Positions 10,589 to 57,998 are shown, counted from the first letter of the stretch. The stretch: DNA of 64,000 bases from Pyrinomonadaceae bacterium (GCA_046154245.1 JBJXFZ010000072.1:3097-67096), one strand, 5' to 3'. Notes: a model not told the origin generated them from the letters alone. Made by a program: numbers and translations.

Positions 10589-11015
10589 ATCGATTTGGGA
10601 TATGGGAATTATGATTTCGGATTTCTTTTCGCCTTTGACGTCTTGATAGCCGAAACGACTATCGAGACGATTTCGTCAAATTCGGACAAGAGCATCGCTA
10701 CCAAGTTCTGCTTGATCTGACCGGATTCAACTAACAGTTCTATCCAGTAAATGAATTCGTCCGATTCTTCTTCAACAATCGCCAGCTTATTAATAAAATC
10801 AGCGGTCGATTTGGCGCGACAAGCTGCCCGATAGTTCGCCCCAACTGAAGTGGCGCTGCGAAGCAATTGTCTGCCAAGAATATCTGATGTCTTGTTTTTT
10901 GGCAAGCTTTCGACGAGGCAAATTACACGCACCGATAACTGCTTCGTTCGGTCCATCATCTCCAGCTTTGTCATATGTAAATCCGCAATCCGAAATCACA
11001 AATCACTAATCGAAA
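10589..11015 (-). mobile_element. candidate IVS-like element: four-helix-bundle gene nested between imperfect 36-37 bp inverted repeats built of 7-bp-periodic GGATT/AATCC units
   Basis: Left arm 10589..10624 is ATCGATTTGGGATATGGGAATTATGATTTCGGATTT. Right arm 10979..11015 is AAATCCGCAATCCGAAATCACAAATCACTAATCGAAA. By hand alignment, 27 of 36 positions of the left arm match the reverse complement of the right arm. The arms abut the dprA start codon on one side and the tRNA-Sec 3' end on the other. Confidence 0.5.
10609..10974 (-). CDS. four-helix-bundle protein (23S rRNA intervening-sequence protein / Avd-like family)
   Basis: 121 aa. The family pattern is visible in QLLRSATSVGANYRAACRAKSTADFINKLAIVEEESDEFIYWIELL. 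The ORF termini are encoded by the flanking repeat arms (C-terminal ...KRNPKS*). Confidence 0.8.
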   Translation of the reverse strand: MTKLEMMDRTKQLSVRVICLVESLPKNKTSDILGRQLLRSATSVGANYRAACRAKSTADFINKLAIVEEESDEFIYWIELLVESGQIKQNLVAMLLSEFDEIVSIVVSAIKTSKAKRNPKS

Positions 11016-35487: not shown

Positions 35488-35496
35488 GCTCCAAAT

Positions 35497-35561
35497 AAAC
35501 AGGATGGGCAGGATAGACAGGATTCAATTTTTCTATCCTGTTCATCCTGTATATCCTGTTT
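35497..35561. repeat. CAGGAT-nonamer palindrome, copy A (ORF-less)
   Basis: AAACAGGAT-GGG-CAGGAT-AGA-CAGGAT ..11 nt.. ATCCTG-TTC-ATCCTG-TAT-ATCCTGTTT. It fills the jag-mnmE gap. Confidence 0.85.
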
Positions 35562-35566
35562 AAATC

Positions 35567-42378: not shown

Positions 42379-42648
42379 AGTTTCCCCCGAAATTCACCCG
42401 CTCAAGTTTTATCCCGAAACACCTGAAATACTATACCCGCAAGCAGGTCGAGTCAATAATTTTAGCGTCTCGCATCTTCCCCCAATGGAAGGCTTTTTTT
42501 CTCGATCTCTTTTCGGACCGATGTTATATTTTTGCGGACTACGGAAAGCGAAAGCCGATTGGAAACGCTCGAATTGCACACAGCTTTTCGTTGGCAAAGA
42601 GTGGCCGTTAGAGTAGAATCTTAAATTCCCTTTAAGGGAACCGGCAGC

Positions 42649-44520
42649 ATGTTTGACGAGAATTTTGATGTGATAGTGATCGGTGCGGGACACGCAGGCT
42701 GTGAGGCCGCGTCTGCCTCGGCGCGTCTCGGCGCCGAAACCGCGCTGGTCACGATCAATCTCGATCTTATCGGGCAGATGTCGTGTAATCCGGCCGTTGG
42801 CGGCATTGCAAAAGGTCACGTCGTGCGCGAGATCGATGCGCTCGGCGGCATCATGGGCCGCGTGATCGATCGCACCGGAATTCAATTTCGGCTTTTGAAT
42901 CGCTCTCGCGGGCCGGCGGTTCAGTCACCACGCGCCCAGGCCGATCGAAGTCTGTACCGAACAGAGATGCGCCGGGTACTCGAAGCGACGCCAAATCTAC
43001 ATCTTCGCCAGGGCGTCGTGATTGACCTAATTGTTGACGATAAAAGAGTTATTGGCGTTGAGATGCAGGATACACGTCGGTTTGGCGCAAAAGCCGTCGT
43101 TGTCGCAACCGGAACATTTTTGAACGGCATGATCCATGCCGGACGGCAGACATTCTCCGCAGGTCGCGCCGGCGAACCGGCGTCAATCGAATTAGCCGAG
43201 AGTCTGAAGAAGCTTGGGTTTCCTGTCGGCAGGCTCAAAACCGGTACACCGCCCCGGCTCGATGGACGGACAATTGACTGGGATGCATTCGAGCCTCAAC
43301 CACCTGACGAAAATCCCGTCGCCTTTTCGTTTGCTACCGAAAGGATCGAGCAGGATCAGATCCAGTGCTTCATTGGTTATACGAGCGATCGGCTTCATCG
43401 GGCGATTCGCGACAATTTGCATCAGTCGCCACTATATTCCGGCAAGATCAAAGGTGTAGGACCGCGCTACTGCCCGTCAATCGAAGACAAGGTCGTAAAA
43501 TTTGCCGACAAAGATCGTCATCAACTTTTTCTCGAGCCAGAGGGCCACAACACAAACGAAGTCTATCTGAACGGGTTCTCGACATCGCTGCCGTCGACGC
43601 TGCAGCAAGAACTGCTGCAAATGGTTCCGGGGTTTGAAAGCGTCAAGATCGTCCGGCCGGGCTACGCGATCGAGTATGATTTCGTCGATCCGCGTGAAAT
43701 GCGACCGACCATGGAATCGTCCCGACTGGACGGACTTTTCCTCGCGGGGCAGATAAACGGCACAACCGGTTACGAGGAGGCGGCCTGTCAGGGATTGATG
43801 GCCGGAATCAACGCGGCATGCTCGGTACAAGGCCGTAAATCCGTTATTTTGCAACGAGATGAGGCGTATATCGGCGTGCTCGCCGACGACCTGATCCGGC
43901 ACGGGGTAGATGAGCCGTACCGACTGTTTACTTCGCGGGCCGAGGCAAGACTCACACTGCGACACGATAATGCAGATCAGAGGCTTTCGCCGAAGGGGCG
44001 GGAGATCGGTCTGGTCGGAGATACTGACTGGGAGCGATTTAGCAAAAAGCGTGATCGAATTGCCGCTTTGCGAAACGCGCTTGATCAAACTCGATTCAAG
44101 CGCTCGTCGCCGGAATATGCTGCCGTTTCGCAGGTCGTCGGTGCCGATCTCGGTGATTCGATAAATTTGTCGCAACTGGCGATGAGACCGGGCGTTAAAA
44201 ACGATTTGATCCTCCGATTGTTGAATGATGAGGATGTCCGTGTATCTGAGCTTGAGACTGCGCTTGCCGATTCGCTTTATAGCGGTTATATCGAAAAACA
44301 GCGTGTGGCGACCGAGAGGGTAAATCACCACGATACATTGCGGGTGCCTGATAATTTTCAATTCAGGACGATCGGCGGGCTCTCAAACGAGATGGTAGAG
44401 CGGCTCGAACGTGCTCGTCCGCAGAATTTCGCACAGGTTCGCAACATAGCCGGATTAACGCCGGCGGCGCTTTCCTCGGTATTAGTTCACTTAACCGCCA
44501 GCCAAACCCAGACAAATTAG
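42649..44520 (+). CDS. mnmG: tRNA uridine-5-carboxymethylaminomethyl synthesis enzyme MnmG (GidA)
   Basis: 623 aa. FDVIVIGAGHAGCEAA, with a full-length GidA pattern. Confidence 0.95.
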   Translation: MFDENFDVIVIGAGHAGCEAASASARLGAETALVTINLDLIGQMSCNPAVGGIAKGHVVREIDALGGIMGRVIDRTGIQFRLLNRSRGPAVQSPRAQADRSLYRTEMRRVLEATPNLHLRQGVVIDLIVDDKRVIGVEMQDTRRFGAKAVVVATGTFLNGMIHAGRQTFSAGRAGEPASIELAESLKKLGFPVGRLKTGTPPRLDGRTIDWDAFEPQPPDENPVAFSFATERIEQDQIQCFIGYTSDRLHRAIRDNLHQSPLYSGKIKGVGPRYCPSIEDKVVKFADKDRHQLFLEPEGHNTNEVYLNGFSTSLPSTLQQELLQMVPGFESVKIVRPGYAIEYDFVDPREMRPTMESSRLDGLFLAGQINGTTGYEEAACQGLMAGINAACSVQGRKSVILQRDEAYIGVLADDLIRHGVDEPYRLFTSRAEARLTLRHDNADQRLSPKGREIGLVGDTDWERFSKKRDRIAALRNALDQTRFKRSSPEYAAVSQVVGADLGDSINLSQLAMRPGVKNDLILRLLNDEDVRVSELETALADSLYSGYIEKQRVATERVNHHDTLRVPDNFQFRTIGGLSNEMVERLERARPQNFAQVRNIAGLTPAALSSVLVHLTASQTQTN

Positions 44521-44522
44521 TT

Positions 44523-44542
44523 GATGTGGCACGTGCCACATC
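44523..44542. promoter_or_regulatory. parS: candidate variant parS site 1
   Basis: Perfect palindrome GATGTGGCACGTGCCACATC. The core TGTGGCACGTGCCACA matches TGTTTCACGTGAAACA at 12 of 16 positions, with symmetric changes. It lies about 90 nt upstream of parA. Confidence 0.5.
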
Positions 44543-44556
44543 GGATCTCGCCCTCG

Positions 44557-44578
44557 AAATGTGGCACGTACCACATTT
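44557..44578. promoter_or_regulatory. parS: candidate variant parS site 2
   Basis: AAATGTGGCACGTACCACATTT has the same core with one asymmetric position. It lies about 50 nt upstream of parA. Confidence 0.45.
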
Positions 44579-54056: not shown

Positions 54057-54316
54057 TGTTAAGTCTGACAAATTTGGGCACGCTCGCCATGATCGTTAAA
54101 CTCGAAGACCTTTTGCCCGTCGCGGCAACTACGATCATCTTTGTCGCGATCGGCCTGATCGTTTTTACCATCGCGTTTTTGATCGTAGTGCTGGTATCAC
54201 CGTTCTCGGTCAAAAAAGAGATCGAAGAAGACCACAACACGGCGCTCGCTATCATCATCGGCGCGCTGATCATTGGTATCGCGATGATAATCGCTTCGGC
54301 TATTCAGGGAAATTAG
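54056..54316 (+). CDS. DUF350 (YjfL-like) membrane protein
   Basis: 86 aa with 3 TM segments. An acidic loop (KKEIEEDHNTA) is typical of DUF350. Confidence 0.7.
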   Translation: MLSLTNLGTLAMIVKLEDLLPVAATTIIFVAIGLIVFTIAFLIVVLVSPFSVKKEIEEDHNTALAIIIGALIIGIAMIIASAIQGN

Positions 54317-54319
54317 GGA

Positions 54320-54393
54320 TTCAAACAGGATAGGCAGGATGAGCAGGATAATTGCTTTTCTCTATCCTGTCGATCCTGTGCATCCTGTTTGAA
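54320..54393. repeat. CAGGAT-nonamer palindrome, copy B (ORF-less)
   Basis: TTCAAACAGGAT-AGG-CAGGAT-GAG-CAGGAT ..14 nt.. ATCCTG-TCG-ATCCTG-TGC-ATCCTGTTTGAA. Confidence 0.85.
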
Positions 54394-54401
54394 TTTCTAA
54401 C

Positions 54402-55925
54402 ATGAAACGCGCTCCGCTACTTTTTCTCAACGTCTTTGTCATCGCAACCTGCGGGCTCATCTACGAGCTGCTCGCTGCAACTCTCTCGTCCTATGTGCTT
54501 GGCGACAGCGTCACGCAGTTCTCACTCATCATCGGGATCTATCTTTTTGCGATGGGTGTCGGCTCGTATCTGTCAAAGTTTATCGACAAGAATGTCGCCG
54601 AGAAATTTATTGAGATCGAACTGGGGGTTGCGGTGATCGGGGGTTTTTCAGCCCCGCTTCTGTTCTTTGCGTTTGCGCACCTCACGTACTTCGCTCTCGT
54701 CTTATATGGCATAGTTTTTATCATCGGAACACTCGTTGGCCTCGAGATACCGTTGCTAATGCGTATCCTAAAAGATGAGCTCGACTTTAAAGATCTGGTT
54801 TCTCGCGTTCTCGCATTCGATTACATCGGCGCCCTGGCCGCATCACTGCTGTTCCCGATCTTTCTAGTGCCACGCCTCGGCCTTAACCGGACATCACTGC
54901 TTTTTGGCATGCTAAACGCAGCCGTCGGCATCTGGGCGACGTGGCTTTTGCTGCCGCTGCTAAAACGAAATGTGACATTGATGCGTGTAAAAGGCGCGGT
55001 GATTCTCGTGCTGCTCGCCATCGCGTTCATCAAGGCCGATCGCCTAACGACGCTCGCCGAGGACGCGCTGTTTGTCGATAACATCATTTATGCAAAAAGC
55101 TCGCCGTATCAACGCATCGTCGTCACAAAGGGCAAAACCGGCTACTCGCTTTTCCTGAACGGCAATCTGCAGTTCAACTCATTCGACGAATACCGTTATC
55201 ACGAGGCGCTCGTTCACCCCGCATTTGCGGCATTTAACGGCGAGCCGAAACGCGTGCTCGTGCTCGGCGGCGGCGACGGCCTCGCGGTTCGCGAAGTTTT
55301 GAAATACAAGTCAGTCGAACATGTCCAACTCGTCGATCTCGACCCCGAGATGACAAAAGTCTCGTCGTCGGTCCCCGCGCTGGGTGAACTGAATAACTAT
55401 GCACTCGACGACCCGCGCGTATCGATAACAAACACTGACGCATATGTTTGGCTCGACGACACGCAAACCGAGCCATTCGACATCGCGATCGTCGACTTTC
55501 CCGACCCGAACAATTTCGCTCTCGGCAAACTTTATACGACGCGTTTCTATAATTTGCTAAAAGCAAAACTCAGACCGGACTCATCCGTGGTGATCCAAAC
55601 AACATCACCGCTAATCGCCCGCAACTCGTTTTGGTGTGTTATGAAAACGCTTGAGGCGAGCGGCTACACGGTCAAACCGTTTCAAACAACGGTTCCGAGC
55701 TTTGGCGTTTGGGGTTTTGCCCTTGCGAAAACACAACCGTTCGAAACACCAGTTAAGCCGCGCGAGAACGTCGAATTGAAGTTTCTAAACAACGAGACCT
55801 TCGCGTCGATGTTCGAGTTTCCATCCGACACATCAAAACCGGCTGAAGAACTCGAGATCAACCGCCTCGACAACCAGGCGCTTGTCCGATACTACGAGAG
55901 CGAATGGCGGCGGTTTGAGCAGTGA
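54402..55925 (+). CDS. membrane-bound polyamine aminopropyltransferase (spermidine synthase-like)
   Basis: 507 aa. About 7 N-terminal TM segments, then an aminopropyltransferase domain (YHEALVHP, VLVLGGGDGLAVREVLKY, VDLDPEM, IVDFPDP). Confidence 0.8.
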   Translation: MKRAPLLFLNVFVIATCGLIYELLAATLSSYVLGDSVTQFSLIIGIYLFAMGVGSYLSKFIDKNVAEKFIEIELGVAVIGGFSAPLLFFAFAHLTYFALVLYGIVFIIGTLVGLEIPLLMRILKDELDFKDLVSRVLAFDYIGALAASLLFPIFLVPRLGLNRTSLLFGMLNAAVGIWATWLLLPLLKRNVTLMRVKGAVILVLLAIAFIKADRLTTLAEDALFVDNIIYAKSSPYQRIVVTKGKTGYSLFLNGNLQFNSFDEYRYHEALVHPAFAAFNGEPKRVLVLGGGDGLAVREVLKYKSVEHVQLVDLDPEMTKVSSSVPALGELNNYALDDPRVSITNTDAYVWLDDTQTEPFDIAIVDFPDPNNFALGKLYTTRFYNLLKAKLRPDSSVVIQTTSPLIARNSFWCVMKTLEASGYTVKPFQTTVPSFGVWGFALAKTQPFETPVKPRENVELKFLNNETFASMFEFPSDTSKPAEELEINRLDNQALVRYYESEWRRFEQ

Positions 55926-55935
55926 TAACAAATTA

Positions 55936-56327
55936 TTCAAACAGGATAGACAGGATAAAAAGGATGAAACATGAGGAACTGACATCACAAATAGGCGCTG
56001 GGTTCTTGGAGTCTGTTTACGAGAAAGCGCTGATCGTAGCATTTTCACAGCGAGGTTTGAATGTTAAGTCGCAAGTTGCACTGCAAGTGAATTTCCGTGG
56101 AGTAATCGTGGGAGATTTTTATGCAGATTTGATCATCGAAGAAAAGGTTTTGATCGAAATCAAGGCAGTTAGCAAAATTTCTCAGAACCATAAGGCTCAA
56201 ATAATCAACTGTCTCAATGCGACGGGTTTTGAAGTTGGTCCGCTCGTAAATTCTGGCACGGCCCGTATTGAGTATTTCAGATTTCATCCAAGCGACCATC
56301 CTGAACATCCTGTCAATCCTGTTTGAA
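55936..56327 (+). mobile_element. CAGGAT-nonamer palindrome, copy C, carrying a GxxExxY gene (candidate IVS-like element)
   Basis: The left arm 55936-55965 is TTCAAACAGGAT-AGA-CAGGAT-AAA-AAGGAT. The right arm 56298-56327 is ATCCTG-AAC-ATCCTG-TCA-ATCCTGTTTGAA. Confidence 0.6.
55964..56326 (+). CDS. GxxExxY protein (PD-(D/E)XK nuclease fold, PDDEXK_3-like)
   Basis: MKHEELTSQIGAGFLESVYEKAL... carries GFLESVY. The nuclease-like signature is ADLIIEEKVLIEIKAV. The start is created by the arm hexamer AAGGATG, and the stop lies in CCTGTTTGA of the right arm. Confidence 0.75.
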   Translation: MKHEELTSQIGAGFLESVYEKALIVAFSQRGLNVKSQVALQVNFRGVIVGDFYADLIIEEKVLIEIKAVSKISQNHKAQIINCLNATGFEVGPLVNSGTARIEYFRFHPSDHPEHPVNPV

Positions 56328-56334
56328 TAAATCC

Positions 56335-57945
56335 GTGAAACTTACTCGCCGCGAAATTTTAACCACATTCCTGGGCGCTCCGATCGCTCTCGCGGCGTGT
56401 CGCGATGTTTCAACGCGCCGGTTTCCCGATGGTGAGATCGTTGGACAGAATGTCGAGCTTGGTCACATCTTACGTGAGCGTCGAACCTTCGATGTTCCGC
56501 CCGGTAATTGGGAAACCAAAAAGGTCGCGATCATCGGCGGCGGCATCGCGGGTTTGACGGCCGCATGGAAATTTAAGAAAGAGAACTTCAATGATTTTGT
56601 TTTGCTTGAATTGGAACGCGAGATCGGCGGCACGTCAGCGAGTAGTCCGGGTCAGCCGGTGGGCTATCCGTGGGGAGCGCACTATCTGCCCGTTCCGTTT
56701 AAGGAGAACACTGAGCTTATAGAGCTACTTAGCGAAATGTCGCTCGTCGAAGGCCGCGATGATAGCGGCGAGTTGATCGTTAAAGAACAGTTTCTCTGCC
56801 GCGAGCCTGAGGAACGTGTCTATTACAAAGGCCGCTGGTACGAAGGTCTTTATCTGCACGTTGGCGAGAGCGAAGAGGACAAGCGACAGTTTGCCGAGTT
56901 TCAAAAGAAGATCGACTATTGGGTCAACTGGCGTGACGCGCTCGGGCAACGGGCGTTTATTGTTCCGGTTGCAAATTGCTCGACCGACACCGACGTCACG
57001 CAGCTTGACAAGATCACATTCGCAGATTGGCTCGCACAAAGCGGATTTACGAGCGAGCGGCTTATCTGGTATTGCGATTACGCGTGCCGCGACGACTACG
57101 GTTTGAAGCTCGATCAAACATCCGCGTGGGCCGGACTGTTTTATTTTTGTTCACGCGTTCGAAGGTCAGGCGCTGAGTCGCAGCCGTTCATTACTGTTCC
57201 TGAGGGCAATGGCCAGTTTGTAAATCATTTTTTTGAGAAGGTGAAAGACCGCGTGCGCCGATCGCAGATGGTCGTGTCAGTCGTACCGACGGCGAATGGC
57301 GTTGACGTTATTTGTCTTGATGGCGGCGAGTTACGCGGCATTCGTTGCGAACGCGCGATCTTTGCGTCGCCGATGTTTACGGCGCCGCATGTAATTCGTG
57401 GCTTTTCGGCGGATGCTCCGTTTGCAGCCACAGAATTTCACCACAACGCGTGGTTTGTCGCGAACTTATTTTTGAAAGACAGGCCCAAGCCACGCTTTGC
57501 AAAAGATTTTCCGCTTGCGTGGGACAATGTTTTATGCGAAAGCCCGTCGCTTGGCTACGTAACCGCGACGCATCAAAAGGGCATCGACTACGGCCCGACG
57601 ATTTTGACCTACTATTATCCGATGTGTCATGAGCCGAACGGCAGAACAAAGCTGTTTGATTATGACTGGCGGCAGCTTGCTGACGTTTGCCTCACCGATC
57701 TGTCGCGAGCTCACACGGACATTTACGAACTGACGACGCGAATCGATATTATTCGTTGGGGCCACGCGATGATCAGCCCGCGTCCAAATTTTATATGGAG
57801 CGGCGTGCGCGAAAAGGCGATGAAACCATATCGGAACATTCACTTCGCGCACACAGACCTGAGCGGCATCGCATTGTTCGAAGAGGCGTTTTATCATGGC
57901 CTTCGTGCTGCAGGCCAAGTAATAAAAGAAATTCAGACAGGATGA
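56335..57945 (+). CDS. Tat-exported FAD-dependent (amine-oxidase-like) oxidoreductase
   Basis: Twin-arginine signal KLTRREILTTFLGAPIALAAC. Dinucleotide fold VAIIGGGIAGLTAAW. The start could be GTG 56335 or TTG 56323 (the track's choice), which lies inside the palindrome arm. Confidence 0.75.
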   Translation: MKLTRREILTTFLGAPIALAACRDVSTRRFPDGEIVGQNVELGHILRERRTFDVPPGNWETKKVAIIGGGIAGLTAAWKFKKENFNDFVLLELEREIGGTSASSPGQPVGYPWGAHYLPVPFKENTELIELLSEMSLVEGRDDSGELIVKEQFLCREPEERVYYKGRWYEGLYLHVGESEEDKRQFAEFQKKIDYWVNWRDALGQRAFIVPVANCSTDTDVTQLDKITFADWLAQSGFTSERLIWYCDYACRDDYGLKLDQTSAWAGLFYFCSRVRRSGAESQPFITVPEGNGQFVNHFFEKVKDRVRRSQMVVSVVPTANGVDVICLDGGELRGIRCERAIFASPMFTAPHVIRGFSADAPFAATEFHHNAWFVANLFLKDRPKPRFAKDFPLAWDNVLCESPSLGYVTATHQKGIDYGPTILTYYYPMCHEPNGRTKLFDYDWRQLADVCLTDLSRAHTDIYELTTRIDIIRWGHAMISPRPNFIWSGVREKAMKPYRNIHFAHTDLSGIALFEEAFYHGLRAAGQVIKEIQTG

Positions 57946-57998
57946 AGAGGATACGCAGGATTGTTTGTATCCTGCTAATCCTGTCTATCCTGTTTGAA
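57932..57998. repeat. CAGGAT-nonamer palindrome, copy D (ORF-less)
   Basis: TTCAGACAGGAT-GAA-GAGGAT-ACG-CAGGAT-TGTTTGT-ATCCTG-CTA-ATCCTG-TCT-ATCCTGTTTGAA. The left arm contains the stop codon of the oxidoreductase gene. Confidence 0.85.

Follow-up and report, generated by a model that had tools for sequence, protein, structure and literature searches.

A repeat-armed GxxExxY gene cassette at a speE–oxidase junction in Pyrinomonadaceae: a probably decaying copy of an apparently undescribed, widespread kind of element

Results

Organization of the locus

The DNA analyzed here, referred to as the window, is a stretch of 64,000 nucleotides from a Pyrinomonadaceae bacterium (GCA_046154245.1 JBJXFZ010000072.1:3097-67096), and the element in question is a small gene of the GxxExxY family that is enclosed by two inverted repeat arrays at the junction of two host genes. 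The upstream host gene (54402–55925, plus strand) encodes a membrane-fused, speE-like polyamine aminopropyltransferase (NF002956, E 2e-197) and ends with a stop codon at 55923–55925. The downstream host gene (56335–57945, plus strand), delimited by profile and junction comparison, encodes an FAD amine oxidase-like protein; its GTG start codon at 56335 corresponds in the alignment to the ATG that orthologues have where the junction is empty, and its stop codon is the TGA at 57943–57945. Comparison with the empty-junction orthologues at loci L087, L092, L094, and L103 places the whole insert at 55926–56334 (plus strand). Within it, a repeat search delimits a 34-nt inverted repeat, the arms of which (55933–55966 and 56297–56330) are 85% complementary and spaced by 330 nt. 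An initial annotation, made by a model from the sequence alone, had described a palindrome-bounded element between the speE-like and FAD oxidase genes, which the inverted repeat at 55933–56330 bears out. The gaps of 10 and 7 nt that it gave to the two genes are correct for the bounds it had used (55936–56327), but not for the inverted repeat itself, which extends to 55933 and 56330, so that the gaps are 7 nt to the speE stop and 4 nt to the oxidase GTG.

Each arm consists of three 9-nt units (ACAGGAT plus two purines) and one TTCAAAC terminus. The left arm (plus strand), which has the order TTATTCAAAC-AGGAT-AG-ACAGGAT-AA-AAAGGATG, was divided by repeat search and unit logo into the terminus TTATTCAAAC and the units ACAGGAT-AG (55941–55949), ACAGGAT-AA (55950–55958), and AAAGGAT-G (55959–55966). 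The right arm (plus strand), identified by repeat search, is CATCCTGAACATCCTGTCAATCCTGTTTGAATAA and comprises the units ATCCTGA, ATCCTGT, and ATCCTGT, starting at 56298, 56307, and 56316, respectively, followed by TTGAATAA. Between and across these arms runs the 120-residue GxxExxY (PDDEXK_3) open reading frame (ORF; 55964–56326, plus strand), which was characterized through profiles, alignment, and an AlphaFold2 (AF2) model of a relative, and which is probably a pseudogene. The initial claim that the arms supply the Shine-Dalgarno (SD) sequence, start codon, tail, and stop codon of this ORF proved correct in every part. The SD sequence AGGA (55952–55955) derives from the second left-arm unit and lies 8 nt from the ATG; the ATG (55964–55966) is the end of the third left-arm unit, AAAGGATG; and the final ten codons, CAT CCT GAA CAT CCT GTC AAT CCT GTT TGA (56297–56326), which code for HPEHPVNPV and the TGA stop at 56324–56326, are the right arm itself. 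The 9-nt period, which equals three codons, keeps the arms translatable. The cassette gene is co-directional with and directly downstream of its host gene, and it ends by reading across the right arm to the TGA of the terminus; no recognizable promoter of its own was found for it. In the minimum free energy fold of the whole-element RNA, the arm bearing the SD sequence and the AUG is paired with the 3' arm.

The arm units recur elsewhere in the window. The two-unit pattern ACAGGATNGACAGGAT (with up to 3 mismatches) has 18 matches, whereas 100 shuffles gave 1.0 on average and 4 at most, and the matches of the window group into four palindromic elements, one with an ORF and three that are ORF-less.

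The encoded protein is a predicted PD-(D/E)XK nuclease

The window ORF matches both PF13366 (E 6.3e-30, 104.4 bits with a cut-off of 22) and TIGR04256 (105.3 bits with a cut-off of 35, E 2.4e-30), and the Pfam and NCBIfam profiles returned PDDEXK_3/GxxExxY only and no transposase family. The motifs GFLESVY, ADL, and EIK (D...E-x-K) are found in columns that are invariant in 53 relatives, in agreement with the initial reading that GFLESVY and D...E-x-K are kept; across the family alignment, the catalytic E (in helix 2), D, and ExK are invariant. A protein identical to the window ORF is recorded in a Pyrinomonadaceae metagenome-assembled genome (MAG; Acidobacteriota), and the close relatives are 131 residues long.

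The AF2 model of one full-length relative, P0002, has a predicted local distance difference test score (pLDDT) of 90, and the arm-encoded tail is of low confidence (pLDDT 72 down to 50). The top Foldseek matches of this model are Cas4 SSO0001 and PD-(D/E)XK nucleases of the lambda-exonuclease/RecE type, with 4ic1 as the best match (E 3e-5 to 6e-5, TM score 0.58). On the basis of this model, the full-length cassette protein is predicted to be a PD-(D/E)XK (GxxExxY) nuclease of ~130 residues. A Holliday-junction resolvase, i.e. a small PD-(D/E)XK enzyme acting on the cruciform, was considered as a candidate and is weak, because Hjc comes only 36th in the Foldseek search, which is headed by Cas4, lambda-exonuclease, and RecE. 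The family profile had no match at E ≤ 1 among PDB sequences, and neither the PADLOC nor the PHROGs models matched P0002. Many family representatives of 250–280 residues (P0121, P0122, P0125, P0131, and others) contain two GxxExxY domains each, and such two-domain proteins may be tandem cassettes fused through read-through of open-frame arms.

The window copy has probably lost constraint recently

The initial annotation had suspected that about 11 residues are missing ahead of the GxxExxY motif and that the copy may be decaying, and both suspicions were borne out. The profile match of the window ORF begins only at profile position 13–14, and when it is aligned with P0002, its closest homologue, a stretch of exactly 11 residues (LKCCFEVSNEL) proves absent, corresponding to a 33-nt in-frame gap after 55993. 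The deleted segment includes the invariant F15 and E20 and falls in helix 1 (residues 4–21) of the P0002 model, and the window copy accordingly falls short of the complete fold (helix 1, helix 2, three strands, helix 3, and two strands). The TIGR04256/PF13366 profiles therefore confirm the family but not a complete, typical member, and the term full-length copy, as initially used, is appropriate for the ORF-bearing copy of the window but not for a complete gene.

In addition, four substitutions have arisen in the window ORF, namely D→N at 56186, Y→C at 56211, L→P at 56241, and F→S at 56253; all of them are non-synonymous changes derived relative to L003 and L007. Three of them (Y94C, L104P, and F108S) affect invariant or near-invariant positions. 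Within the tract of high identity that the window shares with the cassette of L001, a single synonymous difference accompanies the four non-synonymous changes and the 33-nt deletion, and the ratio of non-synonymous to synonymous substitution rates (dN/dS) of the window copy is ~1 since its split from a near-identical full-length copy. Given the deletion of 11 residues and four non-synonymous changes, three of them at conserved sites, the window copy is therefore probably a recent pseudogene in which constraint was lost very recently.

The closest homologues, P0002 (L001/L002) and P0005 (L003–L006), occupy the same junction and have the same arms. Full-length orthologous copies have dN/dS values of 0.07–0.18, close to the 0.04–0.11 of the flanking genes, and the intact copies elsewhere are, by this measure, kept by purifying selection, i.e. 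they appear to be functional genes. Between the window and L001, the synonymous divergence (dS) is 0.012 in the cassette as against 0.40 in speE and 0.66 in the oxidase gene, and the high-identity tract (55920–56375) nearly coincides with the element (55933–56330).

The arm-encoded tail is conserved as DNA within one clade

In the tail, i.e. the last ten codons, of nine relatives, all 27 proline codons are CCT, whereas elsewhere in the gene this holds for only 3 of 22. The residue preceding each tail proline is variable (H, N, D, or Y), with a codon that nearly always ends in AT, and third-position conservation among the relatives compared is 0.82 in the tail versus 0.59 in the core. The frozen CCT codons, the AT-ending codons, and the third-position conservation therefore suggest that constraint acts on ATCCTG and not on the peptide, and together they point to a tail under DNA-level constraint in which synonymous sites are frozen. 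In other clades, the ORF either begins past the arm with a GGAGG of its own or stops ahead of the arm. Because these ORFs start or stop outside the arms, arm-encoded termini are a clade-specific compaction; arm-encoded start and stop codons are a trait of the clade of the window and not of the whole GxxExxY family.

The cassette is gained, lost, and replaced among relatives

The junction between speE and the oxidase gene was surveyed in 80 metagenome loci. Empty junctions, in which the stop codon of speE directly adjoins or overlaps the start codon of the oxidase gene (TGATG or ATGA), are found even in relatives whose speE is up to 86% identical. Some relatives have ORF-less palindromes at the junction, either with CAGGAT units or with units from other families, and others have deletion derivatives, consisting of the arms and the first 25 codons in L088 and of an N-terminal remnant in L106. 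L091 has a truncated cassette copy and L096 a full cassette with GGGAT arms. In some relatives, the same junction holds a cassette with a PF05635 23S_rRNA_IVP (S23p) gene between inverted arms of other tandem units, and in L102 (2845–3566) and L111 (2618–3337) it holds a two-gene cassette composed of an antitoxin-like small ORF and a PIN-domain protein (PF01850, E 3e-16). The junction is therefore a hotspot for small cassettes in general.

For speE and the oxidase, the identity matrices correlate well (rho 0.87), whereas that of GxxExxY correlates with either of them at only 0.43–0.45, and the sister genomes L008 and L018 have 91% speE identity but only 68% GxxExxY identity. By these comparisons, the cassette phylogeny disagrees with that of its flanks. 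The cassette does not belong permanently to the operon; across relatives it is gained, lost, and replaced, and the junction can be filled by GxxExxY cassettes from different clades. A tail-bearing GxxExxY cassette of 131 residues (P0100) is also found in L174–L183, where it lies in an ergothioneine operon between an egtB-like gene (DinB_2 + FGE-sulfatase) and an egtD-like gene (Methyltransf_33).

Heptamer arrays accompany the family across phyla

Flank inverted-repeat scores were compared with those of shuffled controls for 80 GxxExxY loci from species-representative genomes. Most of these loci have flanking inverted repeats far above the shuffles, built of ACAGGAT units at 9-nt spacing, and such arms were found in Acidobacteriota, Abditibacteriaceae, Dehalococcoidia, Anaerolineae, Verrucomicrobia, Sumerlaeota, and other MAGs. 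Related GxxExxY genes do carry the same flanking arrays, so that the initial reading is not refuted on this point. In all the fetched DNA, an array lies within ~120 nt of the GxxExxY domain for 80 of 91 domains, and the fetched loci contain 351 arms compared with 44 after shuffling. The logo of 203 arms displays seven conserved positions, two purine-biased variable positions, and the terminus T(T/C)AA(C/A)(A/C)(A/T)GGAT. Between phyla, the arms are kept at the DNA level despite proteins that are only ~50% identical. A GGGAT arm variant is restricted to one protein clade, and in L027 it shares an operon with a CAGGAT cassette. In 54 of 61 independent loci, the GxxExxY gene has the same direction as the gene upstream of it, mostly at less than 100 nt from the stop codon of the latter; this is to be read against a baseline for adjacent bacterial genes that already exceeds 50%.

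The hairpins formed by these arrays are predicted to be very stable (−36 to −46 kcal/mol, z −7 to −9). However, the variable positions of ORF-less copies are complementary between arms in 24% of cases versus 36% expected, i.e. no more than by chance, and predicted RNA stability shows no bias between sense and antisense strands (6 versus 7; n = 13, low power). With non-complementary variable positions and no strand bias, the arms resemble a series of recognition sites more than a simple hairpin maintained as such. The palindromes were not flagged as intrinsic terminators in a terminator scan, and an Rfam scan of 35000–59000 gave no match on them.

Reading frames through the arms were also examined. 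The unit frame GGA-TRR is a stop codon for three of the four purine pairs, and the frame AGG-ATR can provide an ATG. For arms entered by a long ORF, the stop falls in or just before the arm region in 50 of 91 cases, most commonly at the first GGA-TRR (15). In L030, L039, L065, and L072, GxxExxY cassettes of different phyla lie between an ORF ending ...YV(K/R)DYVSLNQF.. and an ORF starting MLDTDTKRRIDTARDILVGKVPDPKSQVEQ, the latter of which we take to resemble the N-terminus of the type I restriction-modification protein HsdM; this site may be a recurrent target or a split gene.

ORF-less palindromes and other elements of the window

A pattern search identified the three ORF-less palindromes of the window, none of which is assigned to a strand. 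The one at 35496–35562 belongs to the CAGGAT family. The second, at 54313–54400, which was also compared with relatives, has 3+3 units and a 12-nt loop and lies between a DUF350 gene and speE; it is kept in L001, L003, and L161, and other relatives have other unit families or nothing at this position. The third, at 57935–57992, is again of the CAGGAT family and lies just past the oxidase gene, whose TGA stop codon (57943–57945) is supplied by the left arm of the palindrome (ACA GGA TGA). At the sites orthologous to the latter, L027 has a 120-residue GxxExxY cassette and L003 a palindrome of a different family. This palindrome of L003 (11985–12115, orthologous to window ~57935–57992) has arms like tandem GCAGAGAC-type units with a period of ~8 nt and a loop of ~60 nt, and a gene has been called directly across it. 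The DUF350–speE junctions of L087–L166 mostly contain ORF-less palindromes of 80–90 nt with arms of three to four tandem 7–9-nt units, and some are empty. Depending on the genome, the units are CAGGAT, GGAT(G/A)AA, GGAAAAN, GCCGATT, GCGGAAT, CACAGATTA, GGCAGT, CGCGGGCT, or others, so that one site combines a constant architecture with a changing sequence family.

A second type of cassette is located in the window at 10599–11011 (minus strand), directly upstream of dprA, which is on the same strand. It contains a 121-residue ORF (10609–10974) for a four-helix-bundle S23p protein (PF05635 23S_rRNA_IVP, E 1.5e-18) and has 25-nt inverted arms that resemble tandem 7-nt GATTnnn units, with the last codons and stop (AAT CCG AAA TCA TAA) inside an arm. 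Two further 18-nt perfect or near-perfect palindromes, ATGTGGCACGT(G/A)CCACAT, lie 17 nt apart at 44524–44576 and are unrelated to the GGAT family, and a weak match to the radC RNA (RF01754) at 42619–42754 on the minus strand (23.7 bits with a gathering threshold of 40, E 0.67) is probably due to chance.

Discussion

Proposed explanation and its alternatives

The explanation that we favor, with slightly better than even confidence, is that the element is a compact nuclease cassette that is prone to gain and loss, has ORF-less relatives resembling MITEs (miniature inverted-repeat transposable elements), and is expressed through read-through from the upstream gene. The heptamer arrays would be binding or cleavage sites of the encoded nuclease, and cutting at the arrays would stimulate recombinational, homing-like copying of the cassette into junctions and could also stimulate exchange between strains. 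The ORF-less palindromes would be non-autonomous relatives of the cassette, and pairing of the arms in the mRNA would hide the SD sequence and the AUG, thereby holding expression low.

Several observations weigh against this proposal. No target-site duplication was seen at 55926–56334 in comparison with empty sites, and no identical copies were found at more than one locus; the exact proteins P0034 and P0100 each occur at a single locus, giving no hint of recent bursts within a genome. A scan of viral contigs confirmed no relative. In some loci, the ORF is enclosed not by inverted arms but by two complete palindromes or by direct arms, and the S23p (23S_rRNA_IVP) cassettes share the architecture without having a nuclease, so that a nuclease is not required for such a lifestyle. 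Long vertical retention combined with strong purifying selection would be unusual in a purely selfish homing gene. Finally, a single metagenome contig, possibly a chimeric one, underlies the tract of near-identity between the window and L001, and a second high-identity tract between the two is found at 54320–54670.

Some of these points would be accommodated better by a domesticated system similar to REPIN–RAYT, in which the palindromes are long-lived and mostly inherited vertically, the GxxExxY nuclease is their single-copy, host-retained partner, and the host benefits, for example through the punctuation of operon mRNAs. Strong purifying selection, the persistence at one junction in ~20 genomes, the restriction of every exact protein to one locus, the ORF-less palindromes kept at orthologous junctions of close relatives, and the ORFs flanked by complete palindromes, as RAYTs are by REPINs, would all fit, and REPIN–RAYT itself provides a precedent (PMC3116915; bioRxiv 10.1101/2021.07.10.451892). 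We nevertheless regard this alternative as unlikely, given that the cassette tree is incongruent with the flanks, that replacement has occurred between sister genomes, that close relatives have empty junctions, that the phyletic pattern of the family has been described as 'multiple transfers, mixed clades' (PMC3424549), that the window copy decays without visible consequence, and that the protein is no HUH/Y1 transposase. It is also conceivable, although rather improbable, that the repeat-armed palindrome is a mobile or structural unit moved by a factor encoded elsewhere, and that GxxExxY, like S23p, is mere cargo that does not act on the arms. Such a scenario could explain the non-nuclease cargo PF05635 in the same architecture, the many unit families of ORF-less palindromes at the same junctions, the varying orientation of the arms around the ORF, and the heptamer inverted repeats reported from Xanthomonas, with which no gene is associated (PMC4692102). 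It is harder to reconcile with the link between cargo and unit type, GGAT going with GxxExxY across phyla and CTGATAA, GATTnnn, and ACTTATC with S23p, or with an arm variant that follows a protein clade and arm DNA that is conserved between phyla whose proteins are only ~50% identical.

Two further explanations fare worse. Palindromes that function purely at the RNA level, with the ORF incidental, might be processing sites for RNase III or other enzymes, mRNA stabilizers, or attenuators, or, alternatively, CsrA-type GGA sites arranged in arrays, as CAGGAUG presumably resembles the repeats of CsrB. We consider this highly improbable: predicted stability has no strand asymmetry, the spacer positions are not complementary, the palindromes are neither terminator-like nor matched in Rfam, the heptamer is the same from phylum to phylum, a constancy for which RNase III would have no need, and the GGA motifs are base-paired in the fold, which would be unfavorable for CsrA. 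These points have to be set against the great stability of the hairpins, their invariable location in transcribed junctions, and the excision by RNase III of the Coxiella intervening sequence (IVS), which has tandem heptamers in its stem (PMC4990558). An ordinary resident gene with a coincidental inverted repeat and coincidental arm-encoded termini would account for the long residence at the junction and for nothing else, and we regard coincidence as refuted by the enrichment of the pattern (18 matches where 1.0 is expected, and 351 arms against 44 in shuffles), by the recurrence of the arrays around homologues in many phyla, and by the empty junctions in relatives.

Relation to known systems

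Judged by analogy, the closest described system is the 23S rRNA IVS, and the closest functional analogue is REPIN–RAYT. The Coxiella IVS is a 428-nt selfish element with inverted-repeat ends that are cut by RNase III, and it has three to four tandem GACAGAT heptamers directly ahead of the start codon of an S23p ORF that is under reductive evolution (PMC4990558). The IVSs of Coxiella and Leptospira resemble the cassette in having an ORF of ~110–130 residues in the loop of a stem formed by terminal inverted repeats, tandem heptamers ahead of the start codon, an SD sequence within the stem, an ORF that often decays, and a sporadic or horizontal distribution; moreover, S23p cassettes of this build occur at the speE–oxidase junction of relatives and at window 10599–11011. 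However, the cassette lies in an mRNA operon junction between protein genes and not in helix 25 or 45 of 23S rRNA, its cargo is a predicted PD-(D/E)XK nuclease (PF13366) instead of the four-helix-bundle S23p (PF05635), its units have a 9-nt period with an ACAGGAT core, and excision by RNase III is known for the IVS only.

With REPIN–RAYT (PMC3116915, PMC3337134), the cassette shares short palindromic repeats dispersed at gene ends, a protein gene flanked by them, long vertical persistence with purifying selection on the protein, and orthologous intergenic sites that hold different repeat families in different species. It differs in that its protein is a predicted PD-(D/E)XK nuclease and not an HUH/Y1 (IS200/IS605-like) transposase, that its arms are tandem heptamer arrays and not single REP hairpins, that the ORF is usually inside the palindrome, and that its tree is incongruent with the flanks. 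An autonomous transposon with its MITEs would likewise have terminal inverted repeats with subterminal repeated motifs, ORF-less internal-deletion derivatives (such as those of L088 and L106), and presence/absence polymorphism, whereas the cassette has no recognizable transposase, target-site duplication, or multi-copy identical insertions. Free-standing homing endonuclease genes, which include PD-(D/E)XK ones such as I-Ssp6803I, are also small nuclease genes with filled and empty alleles of one site; the cassette-limited identity tract resembles co-conversion, and decay of the ORF after fixation is a further parallel. Unlike them, the cassette is under strong purifying selection over dS > 1, and it has repeated arms of its own, dispersed ORF-less copies, and no intron or intein around it.

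Heptamer inverted repeats have been described with the units GGGAATC in Xanthomonas and GGGGA(T/C)T in Nostoc, where they were called G-quadruplex-forming simple sequence repeats without an associated gene (PMC4692102). Like the arms of the cassette, they are intergenic arrays, mostly of four tandem heptamers, in a gene context that is conserved between species, and 70–75 of the Xanthomonas arrays form convergent pairs able to fold into stem-loops; the sequence of their units differs from ACAGGAT.

Significance

The function of the GxxExxY/PF13366 family is listed as unknown (PMC3424549), and in the full-text literature on GxxExxY, PF13366, and TIGR04256 we found nothing linking the family to repeats or mobility. 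The window thus apparently contains a decaying member of a widespread and apparently undescribed kind of gene cassette at operon junctions. The S23p cassettes at the same junction tie the finding to the 30-year-old question of the 23S rRNA IVSs and their ORFs, and also to the unexplained heptamer inverted repeats of Xanthomonas and cyanobacteria. As a tentative idea, for which we see a real but minority chance, the GxxExxY and S23p/IVP cassettes, including the 23S rRNA IVSs, might belong, as two classes of cargo, to a single unrecognized superfamily of 'tandem-repeat-armed palindromic cassettes' that settle in operon junctions and in the helices of rRNA throughout bacteria, and in which each cargo would recognize its own 7–9-nt arrays and drive the copying or maintenance of the cassette and its ORF-less derivatives. 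If true, this would assign a function to both PF13366 and PF05635 and explain the origin of the IVSs and of bacterial heptamer inverted repeats.

There are also consequences for genome annotation, since the arms give rise to false ORFs and to extensions at the N- or C-terminus (NRIDRI... and HPVHPV...), and the annotation of MAGs is affected in that the arms give stop codons to neighboring genes. The main interest, however, is the family-level pattern exposed by the window copy. For a very large family (22,318 cluster representatives of PF13366/TIGR04256 at 50% identity, E ≤ 0.001), it offers a concrete hypothesis, namely that of a nuclease paired with ACAGGAT heptamer arrays that would be prone to gain and loss at operon junctions.

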